Below are positions 42,404-59,597 of a stretch of 64,000 nucleotides of DNA, in pieces. Position 1 is the stretch's first letter, and the number at the start of each line of letters is the position of its first letter. The notes beneath the pieces were generated by a model that was not told the origin of the DNA, made no database searches, and was given only the letters and a program-made list of their open reading frames with translations. Source of the stretch: Chloroflexota bacterium (GTDB taxonomy: Bacteria; Chloroflexota; Dehalococcoidia; DSTF01; RBG-16-68-14); the NCBI GenBank assembly GCA_029262675.1, contig JAJCYW010000015.1, positions 4,662 through 68,661 of the forward strand, written 5' to 3'. The position numbers and the translations under genes are program-made.

Positions 42404-42524
42404 GATGATGCTCCCCGCGTATCGCCGGGAGTGGGTGGGGCGTACGCCCGACGAAGTGATCTGGGCCACCGCCATCGGAGGCCGTCAGTGGCCTCTATGT
42501 TACAGGAATACCCGCGTTTGTCAA
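42404..42524 (-). promoter_or_regulatory. Conserved array promoter + leader, copy A
   Basis: TTGACA (42524-42519), N16, TAACAT (42502-42497); GAGGCC-N6-GGCCTC; anti-SD hairpin. Confidence 0.75.
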
Positions 42525-42657
42525 CCGGACGAGGCGGCCTTCACCCGGTCCACCGTCACCCCTCTCCCTGAGGGTGAGAGGGGCGACACGTTGCATAGCC
42601 TTGCGTGTGGCATGCGGCCAACCGATGCCGCTGCGTGACTCTAGGTGCAACCTACGG

Positions 42658-43761
42658 TTATATGCAGCGGTCGTTGGCCTGCTGAATGACCCCCAGGATG
42701 TCGTTGAGCAGGTCGATGCTGCCGTCCGGGGCGGTCATGTTCCAGGGATTTGGGCCCGCGGACGGTCCCCGGTCGTAGTTCGCGTCATAGGGTGGGTCAC
42801 CTGTCGGCGCATAGTGGTTGATGACGCCGAGGACGTCGAACAAGACGTTGATGTTGCCGTCGTGACCCGGCCCTGAGATCGTCTCCACATCGTAGTAGTC
42901 CCAGGGGTCCAAGAAGTCTCGCAGGCCGCCGAGCGTTTCGTCCGTGCCGTTCTCTCGCTGGTCGGGGCAGCCATCGCCGTCGGTGTCGGTGAGGTCAGGC
43001 GTTGGTGTGGGCGTACCGCAGCCACCATAGGTTGGTACCTTACCCGCAGGGCAAGGCGTGGGTGTTGCCGTGGGAGTTGGCGTGGGCGTGCCGCAGCCGC
43101 CGATTGCTGGCACTTTGCCGGCCGGGCAGGGCGTCGGCGTCGGCGTGATCTGGCTCGTGCAGTTCACTAACAGGGTGCTGCCCGGAACGGCGATTAGACC
43201 GCTAATGACAGACTGGAAGGCGGCGCCGCTGGTTCCGGCGATCGGGCCGCCGAGCGTCTCCAGATCGATCTGGTGGGAACTCGCGCTAGGCGTGCAGGTG
43301 AACGTGAAGCTGAACAGGCTGCCCTTGTACTGGCTGACATTATAGGGGCGAAGCACCAGACAACCGCGACCGGCGGTGGTGGCCGTGGACGTGCCAAGGT
43401 CTGTCCATGGCTCGCAGTCGGGCCACACGGTGGTAGACTGCTTGAACGTCAGGCCGCTCGCCCCAAAGACCAGAAACGCCTGGGCGCCGTCGTAGCGATC
43501 GCTGAACGGAACGGCGTCAGCGTTGACGATGACGTCGAACATGGCGCCTAGCGGCACACACGTCTCGCTGAGCACCTTAGTGCCGGGGCAAACATGCGTA
43601 TCAGCCGGATCGACATAGATACTCATCGCCGCGCCGTCTACGGCTGAATGAGCTGTATCGATCCCTTGGCCCGCCGTCAGGAACATGCCGGCGACTGCTA
43701 CGACGACGACGGCTACGAGCAGCGCCGCGGCCTTGAGGGCCGTGTTTCGCGAAGGGGCCAT
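42658..43761 (-). CDS. Secreted cohesin-like-domain protein with flexitail C-terminus (array unit 2)
   Basis: Signal peptide; beta-sandwich pattern VPLGAMFDVIVNAD...GAQAFL.F...LFSFTFTC...IDL...VNC; doubled CP.GKVP..GGC linker; tail. Confidence 0.82.
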   Translation of the reverse strand: MAPSRNTALKAAALLVAVVVVAVAGMFLTAGQGIDTAHSAVDGAAMSIYVDPADTHVCPGTKVLSETCVPLGAMFDVIVNADAVPFSDRYDGAQAFLVFGASGLTFKQSTTVWPDCEPWTDLGTSTATTAGRGCLVLRPYNVSQYKGSLFSFTFTCTPSASSHQIDLETLGGPIAGTSGAAFQSVISGLIAVPGSTLLVNCTSQITPTPTPCPAGKVPAIGGCGTPTPTPTATPTPCPAGKVPTYGGCGTPTPTPDLTDTDGDGCPDQRENGTDETLGGLRDFLDPWDYYDVETISGPGHDGNINVLFDVLGVINHYAPTGDPPYDANYDRGPSAGPNPWNMTAPDGSIDLLNDILGVIQQANDRCI

Positions 43762-43882
43762 TACTATTCTCCCAACGAATCGCCGGGAAGGCGCGGGGCG
43801 TGCGCCCGACGATGCGTGCTGGGCCACCGCCAGCGGAGGCCGTCAGTGGCCTCTATGTTACAGGAATACCCAGGATTGTCAA
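43762..43882 (-). promoter_or_regulatory. Conserved array promoter + leader, copy B
   Basis: TTGACA (43882-43877), N16, TAACAT (43860-43855). Confidence 0.75.
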
Positions 43883-43922
43883 CCGGACGGGGTGGCGACG
43901 CAGGGCGCCGCGTTGCGCAACT

Positions 43923-44141
43923 CTAGGTGCAGTCGTGGTCGAATTGCCGGATGACGCCGAGGATGTCGTTCAGCAGGTCGATGGCTCCGTCTGGTGCCGT
44001 CAAATTCCAGGCGTTCGGCCCGGCCGACGGCCCGCGGTCGTAATGCGCATCGTATGGCGGCGCGCCGCCAGCGGCAGGGTGGTAGTGATTGATGACGACT
44101 AAGATGTCGAACAGCAGGTCGACGACGCCGTCCGGACACTT
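43923..44141 (-). pseudogene. Orphan flexitail 3' fragment (72 codons + stop)
   Basis: KCPDGVVDLLFDILVVINHYHPAAGGAPPYDAHYDRGPSAGPNAWNLTAPDGAIDLLNDILGVIRQFDHDCT*; has no start of its own. Confidence 0.85.
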
Positions 44142-44984
44142 CTAGCTCTCTTCCGCCTTTCGCGCCGACGTATACCCGAACCAGCCACCTGGCAGCGACG
44201 ACTCGTAGTCGGTGTAGCCCAGCGTTGCCAGTTCTTCGCCCAGCCACGCAAGCGGCACAAAGTGCAGCTGGAAGCGTCGCTTCATCCAGCGTTTGACGCC
44301 CGCCCGCGAGTCGTTCGGCCGCTGGCTGAAAGTGCTGGCGGCCAGTGTGGCGCCTTTCGCGCTCACGCGGCCGATCTCGGCCAAGGCCTGAGCCAAGTCG
44401 GGGAATTGGTGAAAGCCACCGGAGCAGTTCACCTTGCGAAGGCACTCGTCGGCCAGAGGCAGGCGATGTGCATCGCCACGAATCAGTAGCACGTTGGCCA
44501 GGCCCCAGCGGCTGGCGTGACGCGCGGCGCGCGCCAGCATGGCCTTCGATATGTCCAACCCGATGAGCAGCCCCTCAGGTCCCACACGCTTGGCCCACTC
44601 GACAGTGAAGTTGCCGTGCCCACACGCCAGGTCCAGGACGGTATCGCCTGCCTGCACCTGCAACCTCTGCTGAATCTGTGCAACCTCCTCAGGAAAGTCG
44701 GGGGTGCCTAGCGCCCGAGTGAGCCATCCGCGGAAGCGGTCGTAGCTCCAGGCGGTGAGGGGAGTGTCGAGGAGGTGCTGAGTCGCGGTCTTCTCCAGGG
44801 TATCTCCCAGCACGTCGAGTACGCCGTCACGATATGGGTAGGTTGTGCTCGTCGCTGAGCAGCGCAGGCCGGAGCCGTCCGGCAACACCTCTGGCGGCCG
44901 GTCGGGCGATGTCGGCAGACGCAGCAGCGGGGCGGCGCGCACCAGCAAAAGCCGGGCTCGGTCCGCGGGCATTGCTGGCGGCAT
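44142..44984 (-). CDS. Class I SAM-dependent methyltransferase with Trm112-like N-terminus
   Basis: VLDLACGHG, GLDISKAML, RGDAHRLP; YP.RDGVLD N-terminal module; no signal peptide. Confidence 0.88.
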   Translation of the reverse strand: MPPAMPADRARLLLVRAAPLLRLPTSPDRPPEVLPDGSGLRCSATSTTYPYRDGVLDVLGDTLEKTATQHLLDTPLTAWSYDRFRGWLTRALGTPDFPEEVAQIQQRLQVQAGDTVLDLACGHGNFTVEWAKRVGPEGLLIGLDISKAMLARAARHASRWGLANVLLIRGDAHRLPLADECLRKVNCSGGFHQFPDLAQALAEIGRVSAKGATLAASTFSQRPNDSRAGVKRWMKRRFQLHFVPLAWLGEELATLGYTDYESSLPGGWFGYTSARKAEES

Positions 44985-45108
44985 GTTTCTAGCTCCCCAC
45001 GTATCACCAGGAGTCGTCGGAGGACGACGCTCGCGGCGTATGACTGGCCACCGCCAGCGCAGTCCGTCAGTGTGACCCCCACTATACAGCGGGGTCTGAG
45101 AATGTCAA
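44985..45108 (-). promoter_or_regulatory. Conserved array promoter + leader, copy C (in front of the methyltransferase)
   Basis: TTGACA (45108-45103), N16, TATAGT (45086-45081); CTCCTGGTGATACGTGGGGAG hairpin over the RBS. Confidence 0.7.
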
Positions 45109-45148: not shown

Positions 45149-46960
45149 CTACGTGCAGCGGTGGTCGAACTGTCGAATGACGCCGAGAATGTCGTTCAGC
45201 AGGTCTATGGCTCCGTCCGGGGCGGTCATGTTCCAGGGGTGGGGGCCTGCGGATGGCCCGCGGTCGTAGATCGCGTCGTACGGTGGCGCGCCGGTGGGGG
45301 CGTAGTGGTTGATAACGCCGAGGACGTCGAAGAGAAGGTCGACGACGCCGTCCGGCGCGGGTCCGCCGATACCGCCGACATCGTAGAAGTCCCAGGCGTT
45401 CATGTAGTTCCGCAGGCCGCCAAGCGTTTCGTCGCTACCGTTCTCGCGCTGGTCCGGACAGCCGTCGCCGTCGGTGTCGCCGGGGAACGGCTGCTTCGTC
45501 GGCGTGGGAGTGACGGCCGGTGTCGGCGTGGCAGTGGGTGTGGATGCCGGCGTGACGCATCCGCTGGTGGGGCAGGGCGTGGGTGTGACGGCAGCGATGG
45601 TGAGTATGTCGGTCGCGGCGTCTGACACGTGGCCGAAGTGGTTTGTCGACCGCGCGCCAAAGCTGTGCGTGCCGTTCGGCACAGCGGACGATGGTGTGAA
45701 TATGTAGGTCTCCAACTCTTCGTCGAAGGCGCCGCCATCGGGCGAGACGCCGTCCGTTGTGAATGTGCCGCCGTTTAGGTTCCACTCCGCCGCCGCGACG
45801 CGCGAAATCGAGACAGCGGCCGCTGTCCCGTGGTCGCCTCCGCCGATGACACGCGGGCCCTCCGGCGGGAACGCGGTGTTGCCGGCGGACGCGGAGTAGG
45901 TGGGCGTGTCGTCCGCGGAAGGATCGGGCGCGTAGGGCATTACGGAGGCCGTGGACGTGCGGACGACATCGACGACGGAGCCGACCGGGTTGCGCCAGCC
46001 GATGGCGCGCCTGGCGCTGTCCGAGACATCGACGGCGGGGTTGAGCTGCTCGGCGGAACTACCCATGATGGAGAGGTCTGATGTGTCGCCGCCGTTGTTG
46101 CAGGAGTCGTTCGCGGAGTTGAGGTAACCCCAGGAATCCGCGGTTGAGCAGCTGGACGAGGCGTATTCGTCGAGCGCGCCGAAGATGTGGCCGGTCTCAT
46201 GCGCGGTGACAAGGTCCATGTTGCCGATGCCCCAGCCGTCGTTGTCGTAGGTGAGGACCATGGCGGGGCCGTTCAGGAATGCGAAGGCAAACTTGCCGTC
46301 GGTGAACACACCGTCCCCGTCGTTCAGGCTGTCGACGACGAAGATGATGAACCCCCAGTCGGTGGCCTTCGCGGCGCGACGGTCGTTGATAAAGGCGTAG
46401 GCGCCCGCGACCCAGTCGGCCGGTGTCGACGGGTAGCCGAGGGCGGTGAGCGTATCGGCGACCCAGAGGTCGAGGTCTGTCGCGGGCCGGGAGATCGGCT
46501 CGCAGGAGGTGGGCTGGGCGCCGTGGTCGTCGACGACGAAGCTGAGCGGATCGGGCCGGCCTGTGCGGGAGGTCCAGAACGAGAGGCCGCCCGCGATCTC
46601 GGCGAGGACGGTGGCGCGGCGGGCACCGTCCCAGTCCTCGCTCTCGGCGTCCGGGGGAGCGCATTCGCCGACGCCGCCGCTCGATTCTACGAAGACGACG
46701 CTGTAGGTGGCCGAGCCGGCCATGTAGGAGGCAAGCTGGAACGCGGTGGGCGCGCTGCCGAGTAGCGCGGGCTGGACGGGCGCGGGTGGCGGTAGGAGGA
46801 AGTCGGGTCCGGATGGCATGGTCGGTGGCGGCGCCGGGACGCCGGCGCTGGCGGACGGCGGGGCGGTGCCGTGTACGCCCGACATCAACAACAGTGCTGT
46901 TAGGGCCAACGCGATGAACGCTGCGGCCCTGGCGGCTGTGCGAAGTCGGTGCTCATGCAT
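45149..46960 (-). CDS. Secreted zinc metalloprotease (metzincin-like) with flexitail C-terminus
   Basis: AHETGHIFGALDEY zinc motif, SIM Met-turn, signal peptide, tail; GGAGG RBS. Confidence 0.85.
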   Translation of the reverse strand: MHEHRLRTAARAAAFIALALTALLLMSGVHGTAPPSASAGVPAPPPTMPSGPDFLLPPPAPVQPALLGSAPTAFQLASYMAGSATYSVVFVESSGGVGECAPPDAESEDWDGARRATVLAEIAGGLSFWTSRTGRPDPLSFVVDDHGAQPTSCEPISRPATDLDLWVADTLTALGYPSTPADWVAGAYAFINDRRAAKATDWGFIIFVVDSLNDGDGVFTDGKFAFAFLNGPAMVLTYDNDGWGIGNMDLVTAHETGHIFGALDEYASSSCSTADSWGYLNSANDSCNNGGDTSDLSIMGSSAEQLNPAVDVSDSARRAIGWRNPVGSVVDVVRTSTASVMPYAPDPSADDTPTYSASAGNTAFPPEGPRVIGGGDHGTAAAVSISRVAAAEWNLNGGTFTTDGVSPDGGAFDEELETYIFTPSSAVPNGTHSFGARSTNHFGHVSDAATDILTIAAVTPTPCPTSGCVTPASTPTATPTPAVTPTPTKQPFPGDTDGDGCPDQRENGSDETLGGLRNYMNAWDFYDVGGIGGPAPDGVVDLLFDVLGVINHYAPTGAPPYDAIYDRGPSAGPHPWNMTAPDGAIDLLNDILGVIRQFDHRCT

Positions 46961-47075: not shown

Positions 47076-49229
47076 CTACGTGCAGGTGTGGTCGAACTGC
47101 TGAATGACGCCGAGGATGTCGTTCAGCAGGTCTATCACTCCGTCCGGCGCAGTCATGTTCCAGGCGTTGGGACCGGCGGACGGCCCGCGGTCGTAGTGCG
47201 CGTCGTAGGGCGGGTCGCCGGCAGGCGAGTAGTGGTTGATGACGCTGAGGATGTCAAACAGGAGGTCGACGACGCCGTCCTGACCGGGGCCTGAGATCGT
47301 TTCCACGTCGTAGAAATCGTTCGGGTTCTTGAAGTCACGGCGCCCGCCGACCGTCTCGTCCGGGCCATTCTCGTCTTGGTCGCTGCAGCCGTCGCTGTCG
47401 GTGTCGCCGGGGTCGGGCAGCTTAGTGGGTATAGGCGTACAGGTGGCCGGTGGCGTTGGGATCGCTGGCGTCTGAGACAGTTCGTTGTTCAGTTCGTTGC
47501 TCTCCACGATCTGTGACGAGGAATCGACCAACAAGGTGTTCTTGCCGGCGATGTAACCGTTGAACCAGAGGGTACCTGACTCGCCCTGCATCAGGCCTGC
47601 GCCGACGTTCTGTTGCGCGCCGTTGACAGAGACCGTGAATGGGCCTGCGTCGGCGGTTCCGGCGTTGGAGAAGTTGACGCGTACGCCCAGTTTAGGTGTG
47701 AAATCGCAGTCACCGCCAGTCTCCAGCGTGATGCTCATGCTGGTCGGGATGAGGTCTGGCATCGGAGGCCCTGGCGTAGGCGTGATAGTGGGCGTAGACG
47801 TAACAGTCGGCGTCAGCGTTGGCGTGGGTGTGCCGCACCCGCCGTTAGCGGGCACCTTACCCCCTGGACACGGCGTGGACGTGGGTGTGGGTGTCGGCTT
47901 GGGTTGCAGCAGGTCGAATATGTACGCCGCGCCGGCATTCGTTCCAGCGCTATCCTCCCAGAATGCGCCGACGAGGGCGGTGTCGTTGCTGATGCCTACA
48001 CTCATGCCGGCCTTATCGCCACCATCGGCGTCAGACGCGATGAGCTTAGTGACCTCGCCCCAGTTGCCCGGGCCACCCTCGTTGCGACGGAACAAATACG
48101 CGGCGCCGGAATTGATACCCGCGCTATCCTTCCAGCGAGCCCCCACAACGGTGGTGTCGCCGCTAATTGCCACGCTGTAGCCGAAGCGGTCGAAGGCGTG
48201 GGCGTCGGCGGCGGTGAGTTTTATCACTTCGCCCCAGTTGTCCGCGCCGCCCTGATTACGCTGGAACACGTATGCCGCGCCGGCGTCTGTGCCCCCGGCA
48301 TCCTCCTGGTATGCCCCGATGACGGCTGTGGCGCCGCTGACCGCCGCGCTCCAGCCGAACTCATCGCTGATCTGGGCGTCGGACGCAACGAGCTTCTTCA
48401 TCTCGCCCCAGTTGTCCACACCGCCTTCGTCGCGCCGGTAGATATAGGCGGCGCCTGCGTCGCCGGCCGCTGAGTCCTCGCCGCGAGACCCTATGAGGGC
48501 GATGTTGGCGCTGGCGGCTACGCTGTAGCCAAATTCGTCGCCGGCCTGGGCATCGGAGGCGGTGAGCTTCTTCACTTCGCCCCAGTTGTTCGTCCCGCCC
48601 TGGTCGCGCGCAAGGAGGTATGCCGCGCCGGCAAAGCTGCCCCAGGTATCTTCATGTTGCGCTCCGATGACTGCGGTGTCGCCACTAATTGCTACGCTCC
48701 AGCCGAAGCGGTCGCCGGCCTGGGCGTCGGAGGCGGTAAGCTTCTTCACTTCGCCCCAGTTGTTCGTCCCGCCCTCGTCGCGCTGAAAAACGTAGACTGC
48801 GCCGGCGAACGAGGCCGCCGTGTCCTCGCGGTACGCTCCCACTACGATGGTGTCGCCGCTGACGGCCACACTCCAGCCAAATCGGTCGTCGGCCTCGGCG
48901 TCGGAAGCCGTGAGCTTCTTCACCTCGCCCCAGTTCTCCGTGCCGCCCTCGGCGCGCTGGAATACGTATGCCGCGCCGGCATTGGTAGCTAACGCATCTT
49001 CCCTGTGTGCCCCGACGACCGCTGTATCACCACTGACCGCCACGCTGTAGCCAAATTCGTCGTCGGGCTGGGCATCGGAGGCGAGAAGCTTCTTGAGTTC
49101 GTTGAGATTTGTGGCTTCGGCGGTGGGGCTGCTTGGACCGATGAGGGCCTGACTCGCCATGAGCGTTCCCGTGACGACGAGTACGATCAGTCCCGCGATT
49201 TTCGCCATTGCGTTGAGCGATTGAATCAT
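47076..49229 (-). CDS. Secreted FG-GAP propeller + CARDB + flexitail protein
   Basis: Seven FG-GAP repeats; PDL...N.G.ADAGPF.V...VD....I.ESNELNN (CARDB); tail. Confidence 0.88.
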   Translation of the reverse strand: MIQSLNAMAKIAGLIVLVVTGTLMASQALIGPSSPTAEATNLNELKKLLASDAQPDDEFGYSVAVSGDTAVVGAHREDALATNAGAAYVFQRAEGGTENWGEVKKLTASDAEADDRFGWSVAVSGDTIVVGAYREDTAASFAGAVYVFQRDEGGTNNWGEVKKLTASDAQAGDRFGWSVAISGDTAVIGAQHEDTWGSFAGAAYLLARDQGGTNNWGEVKKLTASDAQAGDEFGYSVAASANIALIGSRGEDSAAGDAGAAYIYRRDEGGVDNWGEMKKLVASDAQISDEFGWSAAVSGATAVIGAYQEDAGGTDAGAAYVFQRNQGGADNWGEVIKLTAADAHAFDRFGYSVAISGDTTVVGARWKDSAGINSGAAYLFRRNEGGPGNWGEVTKLIASDADGGDKAGMSVGISNDTALVGAFWEDSAGTNAGAAYIFDLLQPKPTPTPTSTPCPGGKVPANGGCGTPTPTLTPTVTSTPTITPTPGPPMPDLIPTSMSITLETGGDCDFTPKLGVRVNFSNAGTADAGPFTVSVNGAQQNVGAGLMQGESGTLWFNGYIAGKNTLLVDSSSQIVESNELNNELSQTPAIPTPPATCTPIPTKLPDPGDTDSDGCSDQDENGPDETVGGRRDFKNPNDFYDVETISGPGQDGVVDLLFDILSVINHYSPAGDPPYDAHYDRGPSAGPNAWNMTAPDGVIDLLNDILGVIQQFDHTCT

Positions 49230-49348
49230 GATCGCACTCCCTGTTGCGTCGCCAAGGGTGTGGGACGAGCGCCTGACGACGCATGCCAGGGCACTGCCAT
49301 CGGAGGCCTCAGTGACCCCTACTATATAGAAATGCTCAGGTTTGTCAA
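49230..49348 (-). promoter_or_regulatory. Conserved array promoter + leader, copy D
   Basis: TTGACA (49348-49343), N16, TATAGT (49326-49321). Confidence 0.75.
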
Positions 49349-49465: not shown

Positions 49466-51229
49466 CTACGCGCAAGTGTGGTTGGCTTGCTGAATCACGC
49501 CGAGGATGTCGTTGAGCAGATCGATCACGCCATCCGGCGCTGTCATGTTCCAGGCGTTGGGGCCCGTTATCGGTCCGCGATCGTAGTTCGCGTCGTACGG
49601 TGGCGCGCCGGTGGGGGCGTAGTGGTTGATGACGCTGAGGATGTCGAACAGCAGGTCGACGGTGCCGTCTTGGCCGGGCCCCGAGATCGTTTCCACGTCG
49701 TAGAAGTCCCAGGGGTTCTTGAAGTCGCGCCGGCCGCCTAAGGTCTCGTCTGGGCCGTTCTCTACCTGGTCCGTGCATCCATCGCCGTCGGTGTCGCCGG
49801 GGTCGGGCTGCTTCGTGGTCGTAGGCGTGGGCGTGGAGCAGCCGCCGTTGTCTGGCACCTTGCCGCCCGGACAAGGAGTCTGCGTCACTGTTGGCGTGGG
49901 CGTCGGCGGGGGCTTGATCAGGTCGTAGACGTACGCTGCGCCGGTGGATTTTACTTGCGCGCCGTAGGCTCCGATGACGGCAACGTCACCGCTGCTGGCT
50001 ACGCTCGCGCCGAAGCGGGCGAAATACGCCTCTACCTCGTCAGAGGCGGTGAGCTTGGCTACTTCGCCCCAGTTGTCCGGGCCGCCGTTGTCGCGTTTGA
50101 ATACGAATGCGGCACCCTCCCTGCCGCTTTGGCTTGCGCCAATCACGGCAATATCACCGGTGACGGTTACACTGCCGCCGAAGAGATCGTACTCTTCTGC
50201 GTCGGAGGCGGTAAGCTTGGTCATTTCACCCCAATTATCAGCGCCGCCCTGGTCTCGTTGGAAAACGTAGGCCGCGCCGGCGGAGTCGCCGCCGGTGTCT
50301 TCAAACGATGCTCCGACCACGGCGGTATCGGCGTTGATTGCGGCGCTGCTGCCGAAGCGGTCGCCTGCCTCAGCGTCAGAGGCAGTGAGTACTACTACTT
50401 CGCCCCAGTTGTCCGGGCCGCCCTCGTTGCGCTGGAATACGTATGCAGTGCCGGGGTCGGTCACGACCGCACTTCGCACTGCCCCGACGATGACTGTGTC
50501 GCCGCTGATCGCTACGCTGTTGCCGAAGGAGGAATAGTCCTGCGCGTTTGACGCTCGCAGTATTGTTACTTCGCCCCAGTTGTCTGGGCCGCCCTGGTTG
50601 CGTTGGAACACGTACGCCGCGCCGACGTTGAAGCCGCCGAAGTTGTCGTCGTAGCGCGCGCCGACGACGGCAGTGTCGCCGCTGACTGCAATGCTGTAGC
50701 CGAAGCTGTCGCCGGACTCGGCGTCGGAGGCGGTGAGCTTTGCCAGTTGGCCCCAGTTGTCCGCGCCGCCCTCATCGCGTTGGAACACATATGCCGCCCC
50801 GGTGTCGGCCGTCGCTCCCGCGTCCGCGCCTATCGCTCCTACGAAAAGCTCGTCGCCGCTGACGGCGACACTGTAGCCGAATTGGTCTGCGGCCTGGGCG
50901 TCGGAGGCGGTGAGCGTGGTCAGCTCGCCCCAATAGTCCGGAGCGAGATAGTCGCGCTCGTAGACATACGCCGCGCCTGCCTGGAACCCGCTGGCGTCCT
51001 GCCAACGCGCGCCCATGACGGCGGTATCGTTGCTGACTGCGACGCTGTAGCCGAACTGGTCATCTTCCTGTTTGTCGTGGGCCTCGAGCTGCCTGATTTC
51101 ATTGAACGTTGCTGCTTTGGCGCTCTGCGGCTCGGGGCCGAGGTTGGTCTGGCTGGCAAGCAATATGCCCGCCAAGACCAATAACAGCAGCGCCCCGATC
51201 TTTACGGTCGCATTGAGTGATGAGATCAT
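49466..51229 (-). CDS. Secreted FG-GAP propeller + flexitail protein
   Basis: Seven FG-GAP repeats; signal peptide; tail; ATG 51229 after GGGAG. Confidence 0.88.
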   Translation of the reverse strand: MISSLNATVKIGALLLLVLAGILLASQTNLGPEPQSAKAATFNEIRQLEAHDKQEDDQFGYSVAVSNDTAVMGARWQDASGFQAGAAYVYERDYLAPDYWGELTTLTASDAQAADQFGYSVAVSGDELFVGAIGADAGATADTGAAYVFQRDEGGADNWGQLAKLTASDAESGDSFGYSIAVSGDTAVVGARYDDNFGGFNVGAAYVFQRNQGGPDNWGEVTILRASNAQDYSSFGNSVAISGDTVIVGAVRSAVVTDPGTAYVFQRNEGGPDNWGEVVVLTASDAEAGDRFGSSAAINADTAVVGASFEDTGGDSAGAAYVFQRDQGGADNWGEMTKLTASDAEEYDLFGGSVTVTGDIAVIGASQSGREGAAFVFKRDNGGPDNWGEVAKLTASDEVEAYFARFGASVASSGDVAVIGAYGAQVKSTGAAYVYDLIKPPPTPTPTVTQTPCPGGKVPDNGGCSTPTPTTTKQPDPGDTDGDGCTDQVENGPDETLGGRRDFKNPWDFYDVETISGPGQDGTVDLLFDILSVINHYAPTGAPPYDANYDRGPITGPNAWNMTAPDGVIDLLNDILGVIQQANHTCA

Positions 51230-51421: not shown

Positions 51422-54400
51422 TTACGTGCAGGTGTGGTTGCCCTGTAGCACCACGCCCAGGATGTCGTTCAGGAGGTCTATCACCCCATCCGGTCTGGTC
51501 ATATTCCAGGCGTTGGGGCCAGCGGACGGTCCGCGGTCGTAGTTTGCGTCGTACGGAGGCGCGCCGCCAGCGGTGGGCTGGTAGTGGTTGATGACGCCGA
51601 GGATGTCGAACAGCAGGTCGACGACACCGTCCTTGCCCGGGCCTGAGATCGTCTCCACGTCGTAGAAGTCCCATGCGTTGAGCGGGTTGCGGAGGCCGCC
51701 GAGCGTTTCGTCGGTGCCGACTTCTGCGGCGTTGGTGCAGCCATCGCTGTCCTCGTCGTCGGCGCCGTCCGAGACCGTGTCGACGTCTGTGTCGGCGTTC
51801 GTTGGGTCGTTGCCGGTGAGGTACTCGCCGAGCAGGTTGAGGCCGTCCGAATCGAAGTCGTCGGTGGCGAGCGGAGCGTTGGAGCCGAAGTACCAGCGCT
51901 CGAAGGCGTCGACGACGCCGTCGTTATCGACATCGCCGTCGGGGTCCGTTGCCAGGTCTTCCGCGACGTGGAGCATGGGGACGAAGCGCCACTCCGCCCA
52001 GGTCTTGTGAAGGCTGGTCATGTGGAAGTCGGGGTTGCCGTCGGTATCGGCGAAGCCGCTCTGGCCGAGCGGGAAGATCATCTCTCCGAGGACGGTGGGG
52101 CCGACCTCCACGATCTGCTCGTAGTGGCCGCGGTTGCCGATCGGCGTCGTGTCGAACACGAGCTGCGGGTAGATGGCGGACAGCGGATGGATGTAGGTGC
52201 TGTCCGGCCTGGCGATATCGGCCGGGATGCCGCCGTTCGCGGTGGCGACGGCGGAGAGGGCATCGCGGACGACGACGCGCCAATCGCTGCCGTTGAAGTA
52301 GTCGCCGGAGTAGGCTTGCCCGTAGGCGCCCGCGGGGCCGCCGGCTGCGGAGTCGATAGCGTGCTGGATGATGTCGAGTCGGATGTCCTTGGAGTTGCCG
52401 CTAACGCTGACAGACGTGCCGGAGAACTCGTCGGTGTAGATGTCCGTGTAGAGCTCGTCGATCAGGTCTTCGAGGAACACCAGCTCGCCCGCGATCAGGG
52501 TGTCGTTGACGGGATCGACAAAGCCGCGGCCGAAGAACGGGCTGCCGATGTGCGCCTCCAGCGCGGCGAGCGTGGTGTCGACGGCCGGGTTGCTGCCATT
52601 GCCGACGCCGTCGACGGCGAGGCGTAGGCGGGGGATCAGGTAGCGGCCGAACGCTCCCTTGGAATCGAGGCCGGAGACGTCCATGTTGAGCTGACGCTGT
52701 TCGTCCCGCGTCCAGGTGCTGTCGGCGGCCAGGCGCTCCAGGATGAAGATGTTGCGCTGCTGGCGGCCGAAGAGGCGGCCATCGTCCGCGGTGGCGGCCT
52801 TGTTGTTCCAGTTGGAGGTGTAGCCCTGGGGCGGGTTGATGGCTTCAGGCATCGCGACGATCTCGTAGATCTCGTAGAGGTCGCCGGCGGACGGGGCCAG
52901 GCCCCAGTCTTCTTCCAGCGTGAGCGTGTCGTTGGTGTTGCTGGCGATGCGGCGGGTCTGCTTGTAGCCATCGCCGCCGGTGATGGTGACGATATACTCG
53001 CTGCCCTTCAGCGTCGGGTTGTCGAGGCGGAAGTTGAGTGCAGGCGCCGAGTAGTCGGCGGCCGTGAACGCGGCTGTATCTGTGAGCGTGCCTGCGGCGG
53101 CGCTGCCGACTGTGCCGCTGACGACGACGAGCTCGTTGGCGACGGTGCCGTCGAGCGGCAGCCGGGTGTCCGTCGGCGTGCCGCCCTGGCGGACGCGCGA
53201 GAACCCTGTCGAATAGAAGCCGGTGTTGCCCGCTCCGGCGCCGATATTCGTGCCGGTGCCGTTGAAGGCCTTGTTGTCGGCGGAGATGAAATTGTGCGTG
53301 GTGGGGATCAGGCGCGCGCCGGCGCGGATGTCGAGCACGTCCTCGGCGCGCTGGAAGAGCGAGAAGCCGTGGGCGGCGGTCGATTCCTCGAGCCAGTAGG
53401 CGCGTTCGCGGGACGTGATGACGATGTCGTTGCCGGACTGGACGGCGACGTACTCGGACGTGGCGTCGGGCGTGGTGGTCCAGGCGTCGCCGCCGCCGAG
53501 TGTGAGTGTGTCGTTGGTGCTGGAGAGGACGGAACGGATCTGGCCGGCGCCCGTGCCTTCGACGATGGCGACGTAGCCAGCGGCGAAGCCGGCGGCGAAC
53601 TTGCCGGCGTCCGTGAGTGACGTGGCGGTGGCGCTATCCGCGGTGCCGCCGGCGTCGCCCTGGAAGCTGGAGACGGTGCGGGAGCCGCCGTTGCTCACGC
53701 GCTCGTGTGTGCGCCAGATGGTGATGGGCGTGGTGGAGCCGTTGGTGGCCGTGATCAGCTCAGTGCGCCCGCTTATGGTCGCCGGCGTGCCCTCATCGTT
53801 GTAACGGATGGCGTCCGCGTTCTCGAGCACGGCTGCGTCCAGGTAGAAGTCCTCGTTCTTGAGCTGCGCGGTGGTGCTGGTCCAGGCGACGGAGTCGGTC
53901 TCGCCGATCAGGATGGCGGGCGCGCCGGCGAAGGCCATGCCGCGCGCTTCGATGCGGTGGTCGGCGCCCTCCGCGCTGCGGGTCTCGACGAAGTGCATGA
54001 TCGACGGCGTCTGGATGCCGGTCTGCGGGAAGCCGCCCACATAAGGATTGCCGCTAGCCGAACGGTCGCCGTCGATCATCCAGGCGTAGCTGCCGAGGGC
54101 CGGCCAGGCGCCGAGCGAGCGAGCGAACTCTTCGCGGTGGGGGTCGACGTTGGCATCGGGATCGATGAGGTCGCCGGAGTTGTTGCCGGGGAGGGCGCCG
54201 GCCATGCCTGCGTAATCCGGCTGCGGGGCGGCTTGGCGCTGCGAGAGAGGCCCGCCGAATCCGGGCGCGGTGGCGTCCGGGATGGAGACGGGGGCGAGCG
54301 GGTCGGTGAGGAAGTTGAGGTCGTCCCAGATCTCGCTGCCGATCGTGGCGCCGTACTTGGCAACCAGGCTGTTCAACTCGTTCAGCCGGGAGACTTCGCC

Positions 54401-55045
54401 GAAGTTCTCGCTGCCGAAGTTCCGGACTTGGAGCACGGCGACGGCCATCACCATCTCCGGCGTGTACTGGAAGCCGCCGTTGGGGCGTAGCGGGTCCGCG
54501 CCGCCCGGCGCGAGGTAGTTGGGATCGGCCTGGTCGGAGATGTTCGTGGCGTTGCCGAAGAGGTCGTCGCCGAGGCCGAGGAGCTGGAGGAGCGCGACCT
54601 CGGCAGGCTTCGGCTCGTTGCCCGCGTAGACCTCCTCGATGGTGTCGTTGACGCCCTTGGCGTACTCCAGCAGCAGAGTCTTGATATCGGTGGGCAGCTT
54701 GTCGTACATGCCGTTGAGTTCTGAGGACGTGTAGCCGTTGGCGCGGACGCCGACGTCGTCGCCAAACGTTCCGGGGTCCAGCGCGCCGAAGGCCTGGAAG
54801 AGCGTGCCGCGGCCGACGCGCCCGAGGAAGATGAGCTGGCCGAGCCGGTCCTTGGCGACTTCGCGGCCGTACTCGCGGACGAGCTCGAGGTCGGTATCGG
54901 CGTAGATGTGCGGCAGGCCGAAGGCCGGTTCGCGGAAGACGATGGCGCTGGTCGCGGCGTTAGCAGGCTGGTGGCCGTCGCCGATGGCGACGATGGCGGA
55001 GAGCGCTGCGATGACGGCGAGGAGTGGTAGCGAGAAGCGGATCAT
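51422..55045 (-). CDS. Secreted penicillin-acylase family (Ntn hydrolase) protein with flexitail C-terminus
   Basis: FGLPHIYA, DRLGQL, GSYAW.I...RSASG.P, AWTSTT, NWNNK, GQSG; tail. Confidence 0.8.
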   Translation of the reverse strand: MIRFSLPLLAVIAALSAIVAIGDGHQPANAATSAIVFREPAFGLPHIYADTDLELVREYGREVAKDRLGQLIFLGRVGRGTLFQAFGALDPGTFGDDVGVRANGYTSSELNGMYDKLPTDIKTLLLEYAKGVNDTIEEVYAGNEPKPAEVALLQLLGLGDDLFGNATNISDQADPNYLAPGGADPLRPNGGFQYTPEMVMAVAVLQVRNFGSENFGEVSRLNELNSLVAKYGATIGSEIWDDLNFLTDPLAPVSIPDATAPGFGGPLSQRQAAPQPDYAGMAGALPGNNSGDLIDPDANVDPHREEFARSLGAWPALGSYAWMIDGDRSASGNPYVGGFPQTGIQTPSIMHFVETRSAEGADHRIEARGMAFAGAPAILIGETDSVAWTSTTAQLKNEDFYLDAAVLENADAIRYNDEGTPATISGRTELITATNGSTTPITIWRTHERVSNGGSRTVSSFQGDAGGTADSATATSLTDAGKFAAGFAAGYVAIVEGTGAGQIRSVLSSTNDTLTLGGGDAWTTTPDATSEYVAVQSGNDIVITSRERAYWLEESTAAHGFSLFQRAEDVLDIRAGARLIPTTHNFISADNKAFNGTGTNIGAGAGNTGFYSTGFSRVRQGGTPTDTRLPLDGTVANELVVVSGTVGSAAAGTLTDTAAFTAADYSAPALNFRLDNPTLKGSEYIVTITGGDGYKQTRRIASNTNDTLTLEEDWGLAPSAGDLYEIYEIVAMPEAINPPQGYTSNWNNKAATADDGRLFGRQQRNIFILERLAADSTWTRDEQRQLNMDVSGLDSKGAFGRYLIPRLRLAVDGVGNGSNPAVDTTLAALEAHIGSPFFGRGFVDPVNDTLIAGELVFLEDLIDELYTDIYTDEFSGTSVSVSGNSKDIRLDIIQHAIDSAAGGPAGAYGQAYSGDYFNGSDWRVVVRDALSAVATANGGIPADIARPDSTYIHPLSAIYPQLVFDTTPIGNRGHYEQIVEVGPTVLGEMIFPLGQSGFADTDGNPDFHMTSLHKTWAEWRFVPMLHVAEDLATDPDGDVDNDGVVDAFERWYFGSNAPLATDDFDSDGLNLLGEYLTGNDPTNADTDVDTVSDGADDEDSDGCTNAAEVGTDETLGGLRNPLNAWDFYDVETISGPGKDGVVDLLFDILGVINHYQPTAGGAPPYDANYDRGPSAGPNAWNMTRPDGVIDLLNDILGVVLQGNHTCT

Positions 55046-55216
55046 GGTCACGTCTCCCATGTTGCGTTGGGTGCTGTGTTCGCGGCGGGGTGTCTCTGTC
55101 TGCGGAGGTTGCACACGTGGAAGCGGATGCGACCTCCCGTTAACAGACGCGTCAGTATAGCGGCCGTGTCAAGCGAGCGAGCGGATGACGGTAGGCGGTT
55201 AGCGTTGGACCCGGTG

Positions 55217-56350
55217 CTACCTGCAGTCGTGCCCTTGCTGGAGGATGATGCCCAGGATGTCGTTGAGGAGGTCGATGCTGCCGTCCGGCGCCGTCATGTC
55301 CCAGGCGTTGGGGCCTGCGGATGGTCCGCGGTCGTAGTTCGCATCGTACGGTGGGTCGCCGGTAGGCGAGTAGTGGTAGACGACTTCGAGAACGTCGAAC
55401 AGCAGGTCGATGACGCCGTCCTGACCGGGTCCTGAGATCGTCTCCACATCGTAGAAGTCCCAGGGGTCCAAGAAGTTTCGCAGGCCGCCGAGCTTTTCGT
55501 CCGTGCCGTTCTCTCGCTGGTCTGGGCAGCCATCGCCGTCGGTGTCGGTGAGGTCAGGTGTTGGCGTGGGCGTACCGCAGCCACCGTAGGCTGGTACCTT
55601 ACCCGCAGGGCAGGGAGTGGGTGTTGTCGTGGGGGTTGGCGTGGGCGTGCCGCAGCCGCCGCTAGCCGGAACTTTACCCGTTGGGCAGGGTGTCGGAGTC
55701 GGCGTGATTTGGCTCGTGCAGTTTACCAGCAGCGTGCTGCCAGGAACGGCGATGAGTGGGCCACCATCGGGAGGCCAGAATGCGGCGCCGTAATTACCGG
55801 CATTCGGGCCGCCGAGCGTCTCCAGATCGATCTGGTGAGAGCTCGTGGTAGATGTACACACGAACTTGAAGCTGAAGAGGCCGCCCTTATGCAGGCTAAC
55901 CGGCAGCGGAGGGATTAGTCCGAGCAGACACGAATTGCTGACGTCCGTCCCGCCGGACCCAGCAACAGCGGCCCCGAGCGTCACGCAGTCAGGCCAAAGG
56001 ATCTCCGGGCTGAACCCCCAGACTTTGACGGTGAGGCCTGTGGCGCCAAAATGCAGCCAAGCCTGGGCGCCACTGTAGCCAGGGGGAGAACCGCTGAGCG
56101 GAACAGCGTCAGCGCTGACGATAACGTCGAAGGTGGCGCCCAGCGGGACGCACGTCTCTCCCAATAACTTCGTGTCCGGGCAGGGGTGTGTGTCGGCGGG
56201 GTCGACAGCGATACTCATCGCCGCGCCGTCCACGGCTGAATGGGCCGTATTGATTTGCTGGCTCGCCGACAGGAACGTGCCAGCGATCGCGACGACGACG
56301 AATACGAGCAGCGCGGCTACCTTGAGAGCCGTGTTTGGTGATCGGGCCAT
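55217..56350 (-). CDS. Secreted cohesin-like-domain + flexitail protein, paralog of 42658-43761
   Basis: Same framework (TAHSAVDGAAMSI.VDPADTH.CP.TK...SHQIDLETLGGP.AG..GAAF...IAVPGSTLLVNCTSQIT). Confidence 0.82.
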   Translation of the reverse strand: MARSPNTALKVAALLVFVVVAIAGTFLSASQQINTAHSAVDGAAMSIAVDPADTHPCPDTKLLGETCVPLGATFDVIVSADAVPLSGSPPGYSGAQAWLHFGATGLTVKVWGFSPEILWPDCVTLGAAVAGSGGTDVSNSCLLGLIPPLPVSLHKGGLFSFKFVCTSTTSSHQIDLETLGGPNAGNYGAAFWPPDGGPLIAVPGSTLLVNCTSQITPTPTPCPTGKVPASGGCGTPTPTPTTTPTPCPAGKVPAYGGCGTPTPTPDLTDTDGDGCPDQRENGTDEKLGGLRNFLDPWDFYDVETISGPGQDGVIDLLFDVLEVVYHYSPTGDPPYDANYDRGPSAGPNAWDMTAPDGSIDLLNDILGIILQQGHDCR

Positions 56351-56471
56351 GATTGTACTCCCAACGTATCGCCAGGAGCTCGCGGGCCGCACGCCCGGCG
56401 AAACGCTCTGGGCCACCGCCATCGGAGGCCTTCAGTGACACCTACTATACAGGAGTGCCCACATTTGTCAA
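56351..56471 (-). promoter_or_regulatory. Conserved array promoter + leader, copy F
   Basis: TTGACA (56471-56466), N16, TATAGT (56449-56444). Confidence 0.75.
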
Positions 56472-56585: not shown

Positions 56586-59492
56586 TTACGTGCAGCGGTG
56601 GTCGTACTGCTGAATGACGCCCAGGATGTCGTTCAGCAGGTCGATCACTCCGTCCGGCGCGGTCATGTTCCAGGCGTTGGGCCCTACTGAAGGGCCGCGG
56701 TCGTAGGCCGCGTCGTAGGGTGGGGCACCTGTGGGCGAGTAGTGGTTGATGACGCTTAGCACGTCGAACAGGAGGTCGACGACGCCGTCCTGGCCCGGCC
56801 CTGAGATCATCTCCACGTCGTAGAAGTCCCAGGGGTTCACGTAGCCGCGCTGCCCGCCCAGCGTCTCGTCAGGGCCACTCTCGGTCACGTCGCTGCAGCC
56901 GTCGCCGTCGGTGTCACCGGGGTCGGGCTGCATGGTGGGCGTGGCCGTGGGCGTGGGTGTGGGCGTGGGCGTGGGCGTGACCGTGGGTGTGGGCGTGACT
57001 GTGGGTGTGGGCGTGGCCGTGGGGCACGGCCCGCCGCAAGGCGTGGGCGAGGGCGTGGGTTCCTCGAAGACGTATGCTGCACCGGCGAATTTGCCCCCGG
57101 TAGCCTCGCCGTGGGCCCCCACAACGGCGGTGTTACCATTGACCGAAACGCTTGCGCCGAACCAGGCGGAGGCTTGGGCGTCAGAGGCGAAGAGCTTCTC
57201 CATTTCGCCCCAGTTTTCCGCGCCGCCCTGGTTACGCTGGAAGACGTACGCAGCGCCAGCGCCGTTGAGGGGGTTGCCTGTGCCAGCATCCTCTCCTACT
57301 GACGCGACGACAGCGGCGTCGCCGCTAACCGCCACGCCTCCACCGAACTGGTCGCCGGCCTGGGCGTCGGAGGCGGTGAGTTTCTTCACCTCGCCCCAAT
57401 TGTCCGTGCCTCCCTGGTTACGCTGGAACACATATGCCGCGCCGGCGGAGTCGCCCGCCGCATCCTCAGCAAATGCCCCGATGACGGAGGTGTCGCCGCT
57501 GACCCCCACGCTGTAGCCGAACTGGTCGTCGGCCTGAGCGTCGGAGGCGGTGAGCTTCCTCACCTCGCCCCAGTTGTCCGTGCCTCCCTGGTTACGCTGG
57601 AAGACGTATGCCGCGCCGGCGTCGCTGCCCCCGGCATCCTCGTTCTGCGCCCCGACGACTGCGGTGTCGCCGCTGACCGCCACGCCTCGGCCGAACTCGT
57701 CGTCATCCTGGCCGTCGGAAGCGATCAGTTTGCTTACCTCGCCCCAGTTGTCCGCGCCGCCCGCGTTACGCTGGAAGACATATGCCGCGCCCGGCTTAAC
57801 GCCAATGCCCCCGTCACCCTCGTTTTGCGCCCCGACGACAGCGGTGTCTCCGTCAATCGAAACGCTTGCGCCGAACCAGTCGAAGGCTTGAGCGTCGGAG
57901 GCGTAGAGCTTCTTCACCTGGCCCCAGTTGTCCGTGCCGCCCTCATTGCGCTGGAAGATGTATGCCGCGCCGGCGTTTGCGCCGGTATGATAGAGCTTAA
58001 GGTTGGCCAAGTAGTCCGCCCCGGTTATGGCGCCGGACTGATCCACATCCACCTGGCCATTGATGATGTCCATCTGAACAGTGCCCGTGGAGGAGCCGTC
58101 CCGGTAATTCAACTGCACGTTCGTCAAGTCGTCGGCCGCGGTTATGGCGCCAGACTGATCCACATCCACCTGGCCGTCGATGATGTCCACGTCGACTGCA
58201 CCGCCGCCAACGAGAGGCATGAACACGTCGGCCATGTCGTCTGCCACGAGCCCGCTGCTGATGTGCGTCGTCTGGGCGCTGCCTGAGTGCCCCCCGGGAG
58301 TATCAAGGTATGCGTTGACGATGGCGGTGTTGCCGCTAACCGCCACGCGGAAGGCGAACGAGTACTGCTCGGCGGGCCCGTCGGAAGCCGTGAGCTTGGC
58401 CACCTGGCCCCAGTTGTCCGCGCCGCCCTGGTTTCGCTGGAAGACGTAGGCGGCTTGCTTGTTGTATGCACCCACGACGGCGGTGTCGCCGCTGACCGAC
58501 ACGGTGTAGCCGAAGACGTCGTAGGCCTGAGCATCGGAGGCGAGGAGTTTTCTGATCTCGTTAAACCGCGGCGGAGGTGTTGGGGTCGGAGTTGGTGTAG
58601 GAGGGCATGGCCCGCCGCAAGGCGTTGCGGTGGGCGTTGGCGTGGGTGACGGTTGGGGCGTTGGGCCACTGAGACAATTGATCTGGGCGTTTGCCAGCGA
58701 TGGCGTGTACGCAATGCCGGGTCTGGCTACAAGCACGCTGTGGCTGCCGGCATCTGTCAACGTGATGTTGGCCGTACCCATGGCATGGCAGGTGAACTCG
58801 AACTGGGCGTGCGGCCCAGTGCCGGACCATGTTGGCTGCGAAGGCAGGACGGTGAAACCGGCGACTTCGATGTAGGCTTCGCTCCCAACGCCATCGTCAC
58901 TCGGGCCGAGCACTGGGCCAGTTGTGTTACCAGTAGCTGGGTGCTCTGGCCACGTGTTGTTTGTACCAGCCGGGATGAGATCAAGCAGGGCTTCGTCCCA
59001 GTGCAGACGCACACCGTAGCCGGAAAGCGTGCCCGGGTTGGATGTCACATGAACGCTGACTATGAACGAACCAGCGCCGTCCACAGAACGTTTCGTTTCG
59101 ACCGTGTCGCTAGCACTCGTGGACTCTCCCAACGCGTCCACGGCCAATGCGCCACCCGCAGGAGTCGACTTCGGCAGAGGCGTGTTGGTCTGGCATGACG
59201 TGGACGATCCGAATTGCTGGACCGCACCGAGGATGTCAATCAGCAGGTCAACGACGCCGTCCTTGTTCTGGTCTGCTTGCTTTGGCGGCGGCGGGGTGCC
59301 ACCTGGGGCGTAGTGGTCGGAAATGATGATCACATCGATCACCTCAACGACGCCGCTGCCATCGACGTCGGCGCAGCCGCTGGCGGCGGAGGCAGGGTGA
59401 ACCGACCCCGGCTGCGACGCTAACGTCGCTAGCAGGGCGATCGCGCCCGCAAGAATCAGAAACGCGGAACCGATGAGTGTCTTGTGCCGCAC
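56586..59492 (-). CDS. Secreted multidomain protein: dockerin-like + cohesin-like + FG-GAP propeller + flexitail
   Basis: N-terminal CADVDGSG.V...D / ADQNKDGVVDLLIDILGAVQQFG; SFIVSVHV....LSGYGVRLHWDEALL...FEFTC...GTANITL; FG-GAP repeats; long PT linker; tail. Confidence 0.85.
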   Translation of the reverse strand: MRHKTLIGSAFLILAGAIALLATLASQPGSVHPASAASGCADVDGSGVVEVIDVIIISDHYAPGGTPPPPKQADQNKDGVVDLLIDILGAVQQFGSSTSCQTNTPLPKSTPAGGALAVDALGESTSASDTVETKRSVDGAGSFIVSVHVTSNPGTLSGYGVRLHWDEALLDLIPAGTNNTWPEHPATGNTTGPVLGPSDDGVGSEAYIEVAGFTVLPSQPTWSGTGPHAQFEFTCHAMGTANITLTDAGSHSVLVARPGIAYTPSLANAQINCLSGPTPQPSPTPTPTATPCGGPCPPTPTPTPTPPPRFNEIRKLLASDAQAYDVFGYTVSVSGDTAVVGAYNKQAAYVFQRNQGGADNWGQVAKLTASDGPAEQYSFAFRVAVSGNTAIVNAYLDTPGGHSGSAQTTHISSGLVADDMADVFMPLVGGGAVDVDIIDGQVDVDQSGAITAADDLTNVQLNYRDGSSTGTVQMDIINGQVDVDQSGAITGADYLANLKLYHTGANAGAAYIFQRNEGGTDNWGQVKKLYASDAQAFDWFGASVSIDGDTAVVGAQNEGDGGIGVKPGAAYVFQRNAGGADNWGEVSKLIASDGQDDDEFGRGVAVSGDTAVVGAQNEDAGGSDAGAAYVFQRNQGGTDNWGEVRKLTASDAQADDQFGYSVGVSGDTSVIGAFAEDAAGDSAGAAYVFQRNQGGTDNWGEVKKLTASDAQAGDQFGGGVAVSGDAAVVASVGEDAGTGNPLNGAGAAYVFQRNQGGAENWGEMEKLFASDAQASAWFGASVSVNGNTAVVGAHGEATGGKFAGAAYVFEEPTPSPTPCGGPCPTATPTPTVTPTPTVTPTPTPTPTPTATPTMQPDPGDTDGDGCSDVTESGPDETLGGQRGYVNPWDFYDVEMISGPGQDGVVDLLFDVLSVINHYSPTGAPPYDAAYDRGPSVGPNAWNMTAPDGVIDLLNDILGVIQQYDHRCT

Positions 59493-59539
59493 TGTGCACC
59501 GCCTTACGCCTACATGGCAACATATGCTTACCGGCGGGC

Positions 59540-59597
59540 CACCGGCATCGGAGGCCGTCAGTGACCTCTACTATATAGGAATGCCTGGACTTGTCAA
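59540..59597 (-). promoter_or_regulatory. Conserved array promoter, copy G (leader diverged downstream)
   Basis: TTGACA (59597-59592), N16, TATAGT (59575-59570), GAGGTCACTGACGGCCTCCGATG. Confidence 0.72.

Follow-up and report, generated by a model that had tools for sequence, protein, structure and literature searches.

A promoter-linked family of structured leader RNAs preceding exported-protein genes in Chloroflexota: a candidate cis-regulatory element

Why do seven genes of a single array in a Chloroflexota genome start behind copies of the same promoter and the same leader sequence? The question arises from a stretch of 64,000 nucleotides (hereafter the window) of a Chloroflexota bacterium of the class Dehalococcoidia (assembly GCA_029262675.1, contig JAJCYW010000015.1, positions 4,662 to 68,661), in which the copies, here called A to G, lie between positions 42,404 and 59,597. 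An original prediction, made by inspection of the letters, took them for a new cis-regulatory element that combines a shared operator with a translational OFF switch and coordinates this array. The present analysis favours, with moderate confidence, another explanation: a near-consensus sigma-70-type promoter coupled to a family of non-coding, structured leader RNAs that would act in post-transcriptional control.

The seven promoters are all present as described. The pattern TTGACA-N16-TAWMRT matches seven times in the window, each time on the minus strand, with 0.00 matches expected from 100 shuffles, and a consensus scan of positions 40400-59800 returned eight promoter-like sites, seven of which are the array copies (shuffles, 2.1 +/- 1.4). 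Every copy agrees with the sigma-70-type consensus (-35 TTGACA, spacer of 16-18 nt, -10 TAnnnT) at 10-11 of 12 positions, and all large open reading frames (ORFs) from 40.6 to 59.5 kb are encoded on the same minus strand. The -35 hexamers start on that strand at window positions 42524, 43882, 45108, 49348, 51349, 56471 and 59597; the original prediction had located each copy by the base immediately 5' of its start codon. Promoters A (42497..42524) and B (43855..43882) read TTGACA-N16-TAACAT, and promoters C (45081..45108), D (49321..49348), E (51322..51349), F (56444..56471) and G (59570..59597) read TTGACA-N16-TATAGT, all of them recovered by both the pattern and the consensus scan.

Behind these promoters, copies A-F have about 120 nt in common, a stretch that opens with the -35 hexamer and ends at an ATG behind GGGAG. 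Their alignment also bears out the ...TGGCG tract and the possible hairpin with the Shine-Dalgarno sequence (SD), CUCCYGGCG-AUA-CGYKGGGAG, that had been claimed for six copies. Copy G resembles the others in the promoter and for ~45 transcribed bases, after which it diverges. Among A, B, D, E and F the mean pairwise identity of promoter plus leader is 0.73; it is 0.43 in the 60 nt upstream, 0.53 over codons 1-30 and 0.45 over codons 31-100, and reaches 0.77 in the DNA of a 3'-terminal domain, flexitail, to which we return below. The leader is a conservation island between decayed flanks. Transcription would begin at the point where the conservation of the family begins.

At the RNA level two helices are supported. 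The first, P1, is a 5'-proximal hairpin that begins 4-6 nt from the predicted 5' end; in the window type it reads GGCYNNCG-AUGG-CGNNRGCC and shows compensatory changes in 4 of its 8 pairs. The second, P2 (CGYCARG ... CYUGGCG), encloses a C-rich block as its loop, and canonical members of the family add an inner GUUG/CAAC. A covariance model, R1, was built from 19 sequences, and the statistics were computed on 42 distinct sequences. P2 is paired in 81.9% of cells against 75.2% in shuffles (reached by none of 500), has compensatory changes in 9 of 11 pairs and scores 0.302 for covariation against 0.213 (again 0/500), figures that are inflated by the large contribution of paralogues and by the model-fitted alignment. 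Slid versions of the helix, used as controls, are paired at 22-45%. RNAalifold also predicted the core of P2 de novo when given 14 window-type leaders of four genomes, aligned by MAFFT independently of the model; on these leaders P1 and P2 together are 80.4% paired, with compensatory changes in five pairs. The notion of a structured RNA with covariation is thus borne out, through P1 and P2, helices that the original prediction did not contain.

In the window, R1 recognizes leader A (42401..42489, from ACTGAC in the predicted +1 region to the start codon; 67.4 bits), leader B (43759..43847; 65.7 bits), leader C (44982..45071; 29.3 bits), leader D (49227..49313; 54.8 bits), leader E (51227..51314; 64.6 bits), leader F (56348..56436; 65.4 bits) and, partially, leader G (59490..59562; 18.6 bits), all on the minus strand. 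P1 and P2 occupy 42464-42483 and 42423-42453 in A, 43822-43841 and 43781-43811 in B, 45046-45065 and 45005-45038 in C, 49289-49308 (weak) and 49250-49278 in D, 51290-51309 and 51249-51279 in E, and 56411-56430 and 56370-56400 in F, where P2 is in the minimum free energy (MFE) fold. Leader C, which heads a methyltransferase gene, is degenerate, and its P2 holds a GUCGUC/GACGAC hairpin in place of the C-rich loop. Leader G keeps only the 5' part (P1 at 59537-59556), followed by unrelated sequence and a GTG start.

The leader is not restricted to the array that it had been proposed to coordinate: it belongs to a genome-wide and lineage-wide family. Further copies were sought by nhmmer with a profile of six window copies and then with a profile of more distant ones, which gave about 18 copies in the same genome outside the window. 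Their canonical form is a TTGACA-N16-18-TAnnnT promoter, 5-9 nt, the octamer ACTGGTGG at the predicted +1, a variable hairpin and a C-rich CCCCGC loop. Promoter plus ACTGGTGG occurs in 19 of 41 related genomes, with 11 occurrences in the genome of the window and none for a reversed-pattern control; by taxonomic family (labelled f1 to f5) the pattern is found in 12/15 genomes of f1, 5/8 of f3, 1/8 of f2, 0/2 of f4 and 0/7 of f5. Across the class it was found in six of 301 genomes, namely the genome of the window, three of f3 and two others with single matches (control, 1). Of 79 distinct leaders, 61 have CCCCGC within +8..+120; the corresponding counts are 9 of 114 for other promoter-like sites of the genome of the window and 205 of 5000 for random windows. 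The two motifs are separated by 3 to ~60 nt, CCCCGCC is occasionally duplicated inside one leader, and copy number is 10-25 per genome. R1, for its part, gives 38 matches in 13 of the 16 genomes of the window's own family.

A scan of public records for promoter plus ACTGGTGG gave at least 119 loci, mostly chance matches in unrelated phyla, at least 15 of them with CCCCG[CT] downstream; among the CCCCG[CT]-bearing matches listed, seven of the ten with titles are labelled Dehalococcoidia, Chloroflexota or Chloroflexia, a result that provides taxon labels and not a distribution. In a metagenome scan for ACTGGTGG-N6-36-GTTG-N0-3-CCCCGC (at least 120 loci), a promoter was present in 0/120 among the matches listed, and all of these were therefore taken as chance matches.

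The leaders that include the window copies form a subtype, Type I, with a single architecture. Both motifs also occur in other arrangements; family-wide, P1 is optional and P2 is built differently between subtypes. In Type II leaders (L083, L034, L059 and G000:C12:104618), ACUG is followed by GUGGAG-loop-CUCCAC, and a hairpin that uses the SD itself (UGGAGA) as its 3' strand carries the CCCCGCC block in its loop; with this layout the 5' hairpin holds both an SD mimic and an anti-SD. Two further leaders, G000:C7:184878-184919 (L042) and G000:C3:265197, have, in place of the CCCCGC hairpin, another conserved downstream block in common, GGCCTTCTRACKGCAGGGACGCGGTTC...GGCGGGCAC; one begins with ACTGGTGG and precedes a flexitail gene, and the block may represent another leader class. 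Some relatives carry GCTGGTGG at +1 to +8. This word, which differs by one base from ACTGGTGG, is the Chi site of Escherichia coli; a Chi-like role of ACTGGTGG was examined and the resemblance judged coincidental, as its 127 genome copies against 85 of the reversed word show no Chi-like over-representation.

What the family marks is apparent from the genes behind it. Elsewhere in the genome of the window, all 17 callable downstream ORFs start with a signal-peptide-like or anchor-like hydrophobic stretch, and several carry a CSLREA-type motif. Among all relatives, 54 of 68 downstream ORFs have a strongly hydrophobic N-terminus (11 of the 79 leader instances had no callable ORF and were excluded), against 843 of 4250 control ORFs (19.8%). 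The SD regions of the family are enriched in GGGGA (21/68 against 224/4245 in controls), which fits pairing of the SD with the C-rich loop and is no proof of it.

These observations can be assembled into a mechanism, in which we infer the start of transcription, the switching and a trans-acting factor. The family would mark the mRNAs of exported and surface proteins in two taxonomic families of one Chloroflexota order. A canonical leader would start at the predicted +1 with (N)ACUGGUGG, form P1 and then P2, and P2 would display the C-rich loop YCCCCGCY ahead of a G-rich SD. Control would be exerted post-transcriptionally on the initiation of translation and possibly on mRNA stability. A factor acting in trans, more likely a protein or an RNA than a small molecule, would recognize the 5'-terminal UGGUGG and the C-rich loop and set the balance, and many surface-protein mRNAs would be regulated together. 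The window copies would be a derived, flexitail-linked subtype that has kept P1 and P2 while its motifs drifted (ACUGA(C)GG; CCCCAC, CCCGCG). In this subtype an anti-SD (CUCCY) shares bases with the 3' strand of P2 (CYYGGCG). The anti-SD tract could bind the 5' side of P2, in which case the SD stays free, or else the SD itself; the two states are predicted to be near-isoenergetic in four of six copies.

Counterparts of such a recognition are known. CsrA and Rsm proteins bind GGA sites, and RNAs of the RsaE/RoxS type pair with SDs through C-rich loops. The leaders resemble both systems in carrying a short invariant loop motif, once or twice per leader and at a variable distance from the SD, and resemble RsaE/RoxS also in that the C-rich motif is complementary to a G-rich SD. 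They differ in that the motif is CCCCGCC, lies in cis and is not GGA, and in that neither a binding protein nor a partner small RNA (sRNA) was found.

The alternative pairing in the window subtype is what remains of the proposed OFF switch. The hairpin CUCCYGGCG-AUA-CGYKGGGAG could form at 42411-42431 in leader A, 43769-43789 in B, 44993-45013 in C, 51237-51257 in E and 56358-56378 in F. Its 5' strand is the 3' strand of P2, and the two folds are therefore mutually exclusive. Constrained folding places the two states only 0.3-1.6 kcal/mol apart in A, B, C and F. P2 is favoured by 13.7 kcal/mol in D (-37.4 against -23.7), and in E neither of the two is optimal, the SD being paired with the C-rich tract in the MFE fold. 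Sequestration of the SD is thus energetically plausible in A, B, C and F, where the 9-bp anti-SD:SD hairpin competing with another helix recalls SD-sequestering switches and RNA thermometers such as ROSE and fourU; unlike these, the leader has no Rfam match, no covariation in the SD helix and no family-wide occlusion of the SD. RNAalifold did not predict the hairpin in the 14 window-type leaders. A toggle between P2 and the SD hairpin is possible in the window subtype; as a default-OFF switch it is not a property of the family, since the SD is slightly more open family-wide.

Several results weigh against the reading as a regulated leader family, beside the inflation of the P2 statistics mentioned above. 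The SD hairpin lacks covariation support, its 69.6% of paired cells comparing with 70.0% for shuffles (380 of 500 reach it), and the SD of 58 family leaders is slightly more accessible than when the leader is shuffled (0.392 against 0.345; higher in 37 of 58). Permutation tests gave only modest excesses for P1 (79 leaders; 5.68 against 5.45 +/- 0.10) and for hairpins around CCCCGC (3.64 against 3.30 +/- 0.15), and the stability of single-sequence folds is ordinary in 13 leaders (z between -1.9 and +1.3). Covariation is never seen between the two invariant motifs, which deprives the proposed GGUGG:CCGCC pairing of a covariation test. When the genome was searched for an sRNA with both complementary motifs, GGCGGGG and CCACCAG, the only matches lay in coding regions and on the reverse strands of the leaders themselves. 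Finally, both invariant motifs are degraded in the window subtype itself: its copies align to the family but have drifted, with ACTGA(C)GG in the place of ACTGGTGG and with CCCCAC, CCCCGCG, CCCGCG or CCCAC as the C-rich block. The seven copies may therefore no longer respond to whatever recognizes the canonical form.

The main rival, to which we leave a minor but serious share of the probability, keeps the RNA structure and dispenses with the switch. The leader would be a constitutive module for high and stable expression of abundant surface proteins, in which a strong promoter is followed by hairpins that shield the 5' end from 5'-end-dependent ribonucleases and leave the SD open. The near-consensus promoters, the position of P1 close to the predicted 5' end, the accessibility of the SD and the missing covariation of the SD hairpin all agree with it. 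The 5' untranslated region (UTR) of ompA, the aprE leader and the leaders of S-layer genes are 5'-terminal stabilizers of this kind on abundant envelope or exoprotein mRNAs, and they too combine a long leader of an abundant exported protein with a hairpin near the 5' end and an accessible SD. They are, however, gene-specific and not known to share an invariant motif, whereas here 10-25 copies per genome carry an octamer at the 5' end and a C-rich loop, both invariant. A generic stabilizer would need neither an invariant 8-nt 5' sequence nor a C-rich loop maintained across two families; nor would it call for the occasional doubling of CCCCGCC in one leader or for the use of the SD itself as the 3' strand of P2, as in several (Type II) leaders. 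Regulation remains the preferred explanation. A bolder form of it, in which UGGUGG and the C-rich loop are an address tag and a dedicated RNA-binding factor ties translation or membrane targeting to the capacity for export and surface assembly, is speculative and we consider it doubtful. If true, it would amount to a type of post-transcriptional regulon, uniting exported proteins, that has yet to be described in bacteria.

A new small-molecule riboswitch, responding for instance to a second messenger through an aptamer made of UGGUGG, P1, P2, the C-rich loop and possibly a pseudoknot, appears unlikely. Conserved loops or junctions with covarying stems are what an aptamer would present, and the many copies before surface-protein genes recall the regulons of c-di-GMP and cGAMP. 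The likeness to the c-di-GMP-I class extends to a multi-copy 5'-UTR element before genes of secreted, adhesive or surface proteins and to a position just 5' of the SD, and the genome encodes 15 GGDEF-domain genes. The leader nevertheless matches that class neither in sequence nor in structure, has a variable architecture and gives no indication of a ligand; the downstream genes offer no metabolic or transport clue. A search for the c-di-GMP-I riboswitch (RF01051, at least 35 bits) found none at the leaders (window 40000-60000 and 16 leader loci of the genome) and five away from them, at G000:C21:50672-50762, C18:189684-189775, C10:251232-251322, C18:7991-8083 and C10:253972-254062. It is because the arrangement of the motifs varies (spacing of 3 to ~60 nt, optional P1, diverse P2) and because these five riboswitches are already present that a riboswitch is the less likely explanation.

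In the original prediction the leader was not recognized as a known riboswitch, and the Rfam searches agree with this. At the gathering threshold, Rfam 15 matched the whole window only with a cobalamin riboswitch (RF00174, 63.4 bits) at 2052-2201 on the plus strand, upstream of an ORF at 2322-3518. In E-value mode, window positions 40000-60000 and the 16 leader loci gave sub-threshold chance matches only. One of these, at a single leader locus, was with Chloroflexi-1 RNA (RF01698; 18 bits, E = 5.7, gathering score 80), likewise a candidate structured RNA from this phylum, for which the table in its source names only Chloroflexus aggregans (PMC2864571). Full-text literature searches on the octamer, on structured RNAs of Chloroflexi and on flexitail, at the level of listings and abstracts, turned up no account of the leader. 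The family is real and, as a cis-acting leader RNA, apparently undescribed. Its kind is known, that of a structured cis-element in the 5' UTR; what is unusual is the invariance of the very 5' end, the construction of several architectures on two motifs and the exported-protein regulon.

Control at the level of DNA was central to the original prediction, in which a palindrome at +1 served as a shared operator. The palindrome GAGGCC-ACTGAC-GGCCTC is indeed present, and its 6-bp inverted repeat is perfect in A and B; it matches at 5 of 6 positions in G and is weaker in C, D, E and F, so that D, E and G join the two copies, C and F, that had been declared imperfect. Its 5' arm lies upstream of the start of the conserved region and probably upstream of the transcript. 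The fixed distance of ACTGGTGG from the -10 hexamer and the similarity between window copies of the ~20 nt 5' of the -35 hexamer could also speak for the palindrome or the ACTGGTGG box as the operator of an array-wide transcription factor, an idea to which we nonetheless attach little credence. With a perfect repeat in only two of seven copies, the palindrome is not a feature of the family: in 79 leaders, complementarity between the discriminator and +6..+18 shows no excess over permutation (2.68 observed against 2.73). The 3' arm of the palindrome coincides with the 5' strand of P1, which changes in a compensatory manner in relatives, and the covariation of P2 is inexplicable at the DNA level. 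Inverted repeats around the -10 hexamer, suggestive by eye, were tried as well and rejected (2.78 against 2.79).

It is very improbable that the similarity has no function of its own and is left over from recent tandem duplication or from gene conversion between paralogues: tandem paralogues with common 5' and 3' modules around variable middles and the identical promoters of D and E would suit it, but the flanks are at background (0.43 and 0.45, against 0.73 for the leader), homologues of the leader occur beyond this contig, genus and family, and paired positions change in a compensatory way.

Least of all does the leader appear to be coding, a reading in which translation from the upstream ATG would add 24 N-terminal residues and which is largely refuted: an open stretch of 72 nt is in frame in A, E and F (the three copies for which this had been claimed), where longer ORFs are listed, but copies B and C have CTG instead, the frame is lost in C, D and G, no SD precedes the upstream triplet while GGGAG stands 7-9 nt before the inner ATG, and protein similarity begins at the inner ATG. 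The triplet, ATG in A, D, E, F and G, is also 72 nt away and in frame in B; in D the offset is 71 nt, and in C it is 73 nt and stops intervene (G has stops too), which agrees with the frameshift and the interruption reported for these two copies. In RNA the ATG is the AUGG loop of P1, and in other copies and relatives the triplet is CUG, ACG, UUG or GCG; lying in a loop and not being conserved, it is no start codon, and the leader is non-coding as originally held.

The preferred explanation, a regulated leader family, gains context from the genes of the array, all on the minus strand. Gene A (40640..42403) encodes an FG-GAP repeat protein with an N-terminal anchor and a C-terminal flexitail domain, and genes B (42658..43761; 367 aa) and F (55217..56350; 377 aa) encode proteins with a C-terminal flexitail domain and no Pfam match. 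Gene C (44142..44984) encodes an S-adenosylmethionine (SAM)-dependent methyltransferase without flexitail; gene D (47076..49229) combines FG-GAP, CARDB and flexitail, gene E (49466..51229) FG-GAP and flexitail, and gene G (56586..59492) a dockerin-like domain, FG-GAP and flexitail. These seven assignments rest on Pfam and NCBIfam. Two more flexitail genes have no promoter copy of their own, one with weak reprolysin-like matches downstream of gene D (45149..46960) and one for a penicillin-amidase-like protein downstream of gene F (51422..55114). Among the nine array proteins Pfam finds FG-GAP repeats in four, no match in two, and otherwise the methyltransferase, the penicillin-amidase-like protein and weak metallopeptidase matches. 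The flexitail domain (NF041520, 'putative surface protein'; NCBIfam model, cut-off 40 bits) forms the last ~108 residues of eight of the nine, at 137.7-153.8 bits.

The only array protein without the domain is the methyltransferase behind leader C. Just 3' of its gene lies a flexitail remnant (43929..44144, or C15:48590-48805; profile positions 37-107, one internal TAG), which suggests that a flexitail gene was replaced or disrupted there and that its promoter and leader were kept. Wherever checked in the genome, the window subtype precedes flexitail genes, with this remnant in the case of copy C. From the flexitail ends and the shared leaders, the array can be described as a row of surface-protein genes, in each of which a variable middle stands between a conserved 5' module, made up of promoter, leader and N-terminal anchor, and a conserved 3' module. 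The 3.4-Mb genome has 53 matches to NF041520, and the counts in the 15 other genomes of its family range from 13 to 51, a very large repertoire of paralogous surface proteins in which conserved 5' and 3' modules enclose variable middles. Flexitail genes occur in 15/15 genomes of f1, 2/2 of f4, 1/8 of f3, 1/7 of f5 and 0/8 of f2. A tie between leader and flexitail was rejected as a general rule, as five f3 genomes have the leader without flexitail and the f4 genomes flexitail without the leader pattern; in the genome of the window a crude check recognized a leader at only ~9-12 of 46 flexitail genes.

Just 5' of promoters A, D and F lie GC-rich repeats resembling repetitive extragenic palindromic (REP) elements (42559-42583, 49385-49395 and 56514-56522), composed of a CCCCTCTC...GGAGAGGGG hairpin and GGGGTGAGGG(C) boxes; the three patterns tested have 21, 21 and 63 copies in the genome.

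If functional, the leaders constitute an uncatalogued family of cis-regulatory RNAs that marks FG-GAP, CSLREA-type, flexitail and other exported or surface-protein genes in a lineage represented here by metagenome-assembled genomes only. The leader is helpful for annotation, because it allows true start codons to be placed at the inner ATG and strong promoters to be identified in these genomes. With two invariant motifs and one covarying helix, it offers a compact object in which to test RNA-protein or RNA-RNA recognition at the 5' end of an mRNA. It would also show, provided that it is functional, how a large and fast-evolving repertoire of surface proteins can be co-regulated.

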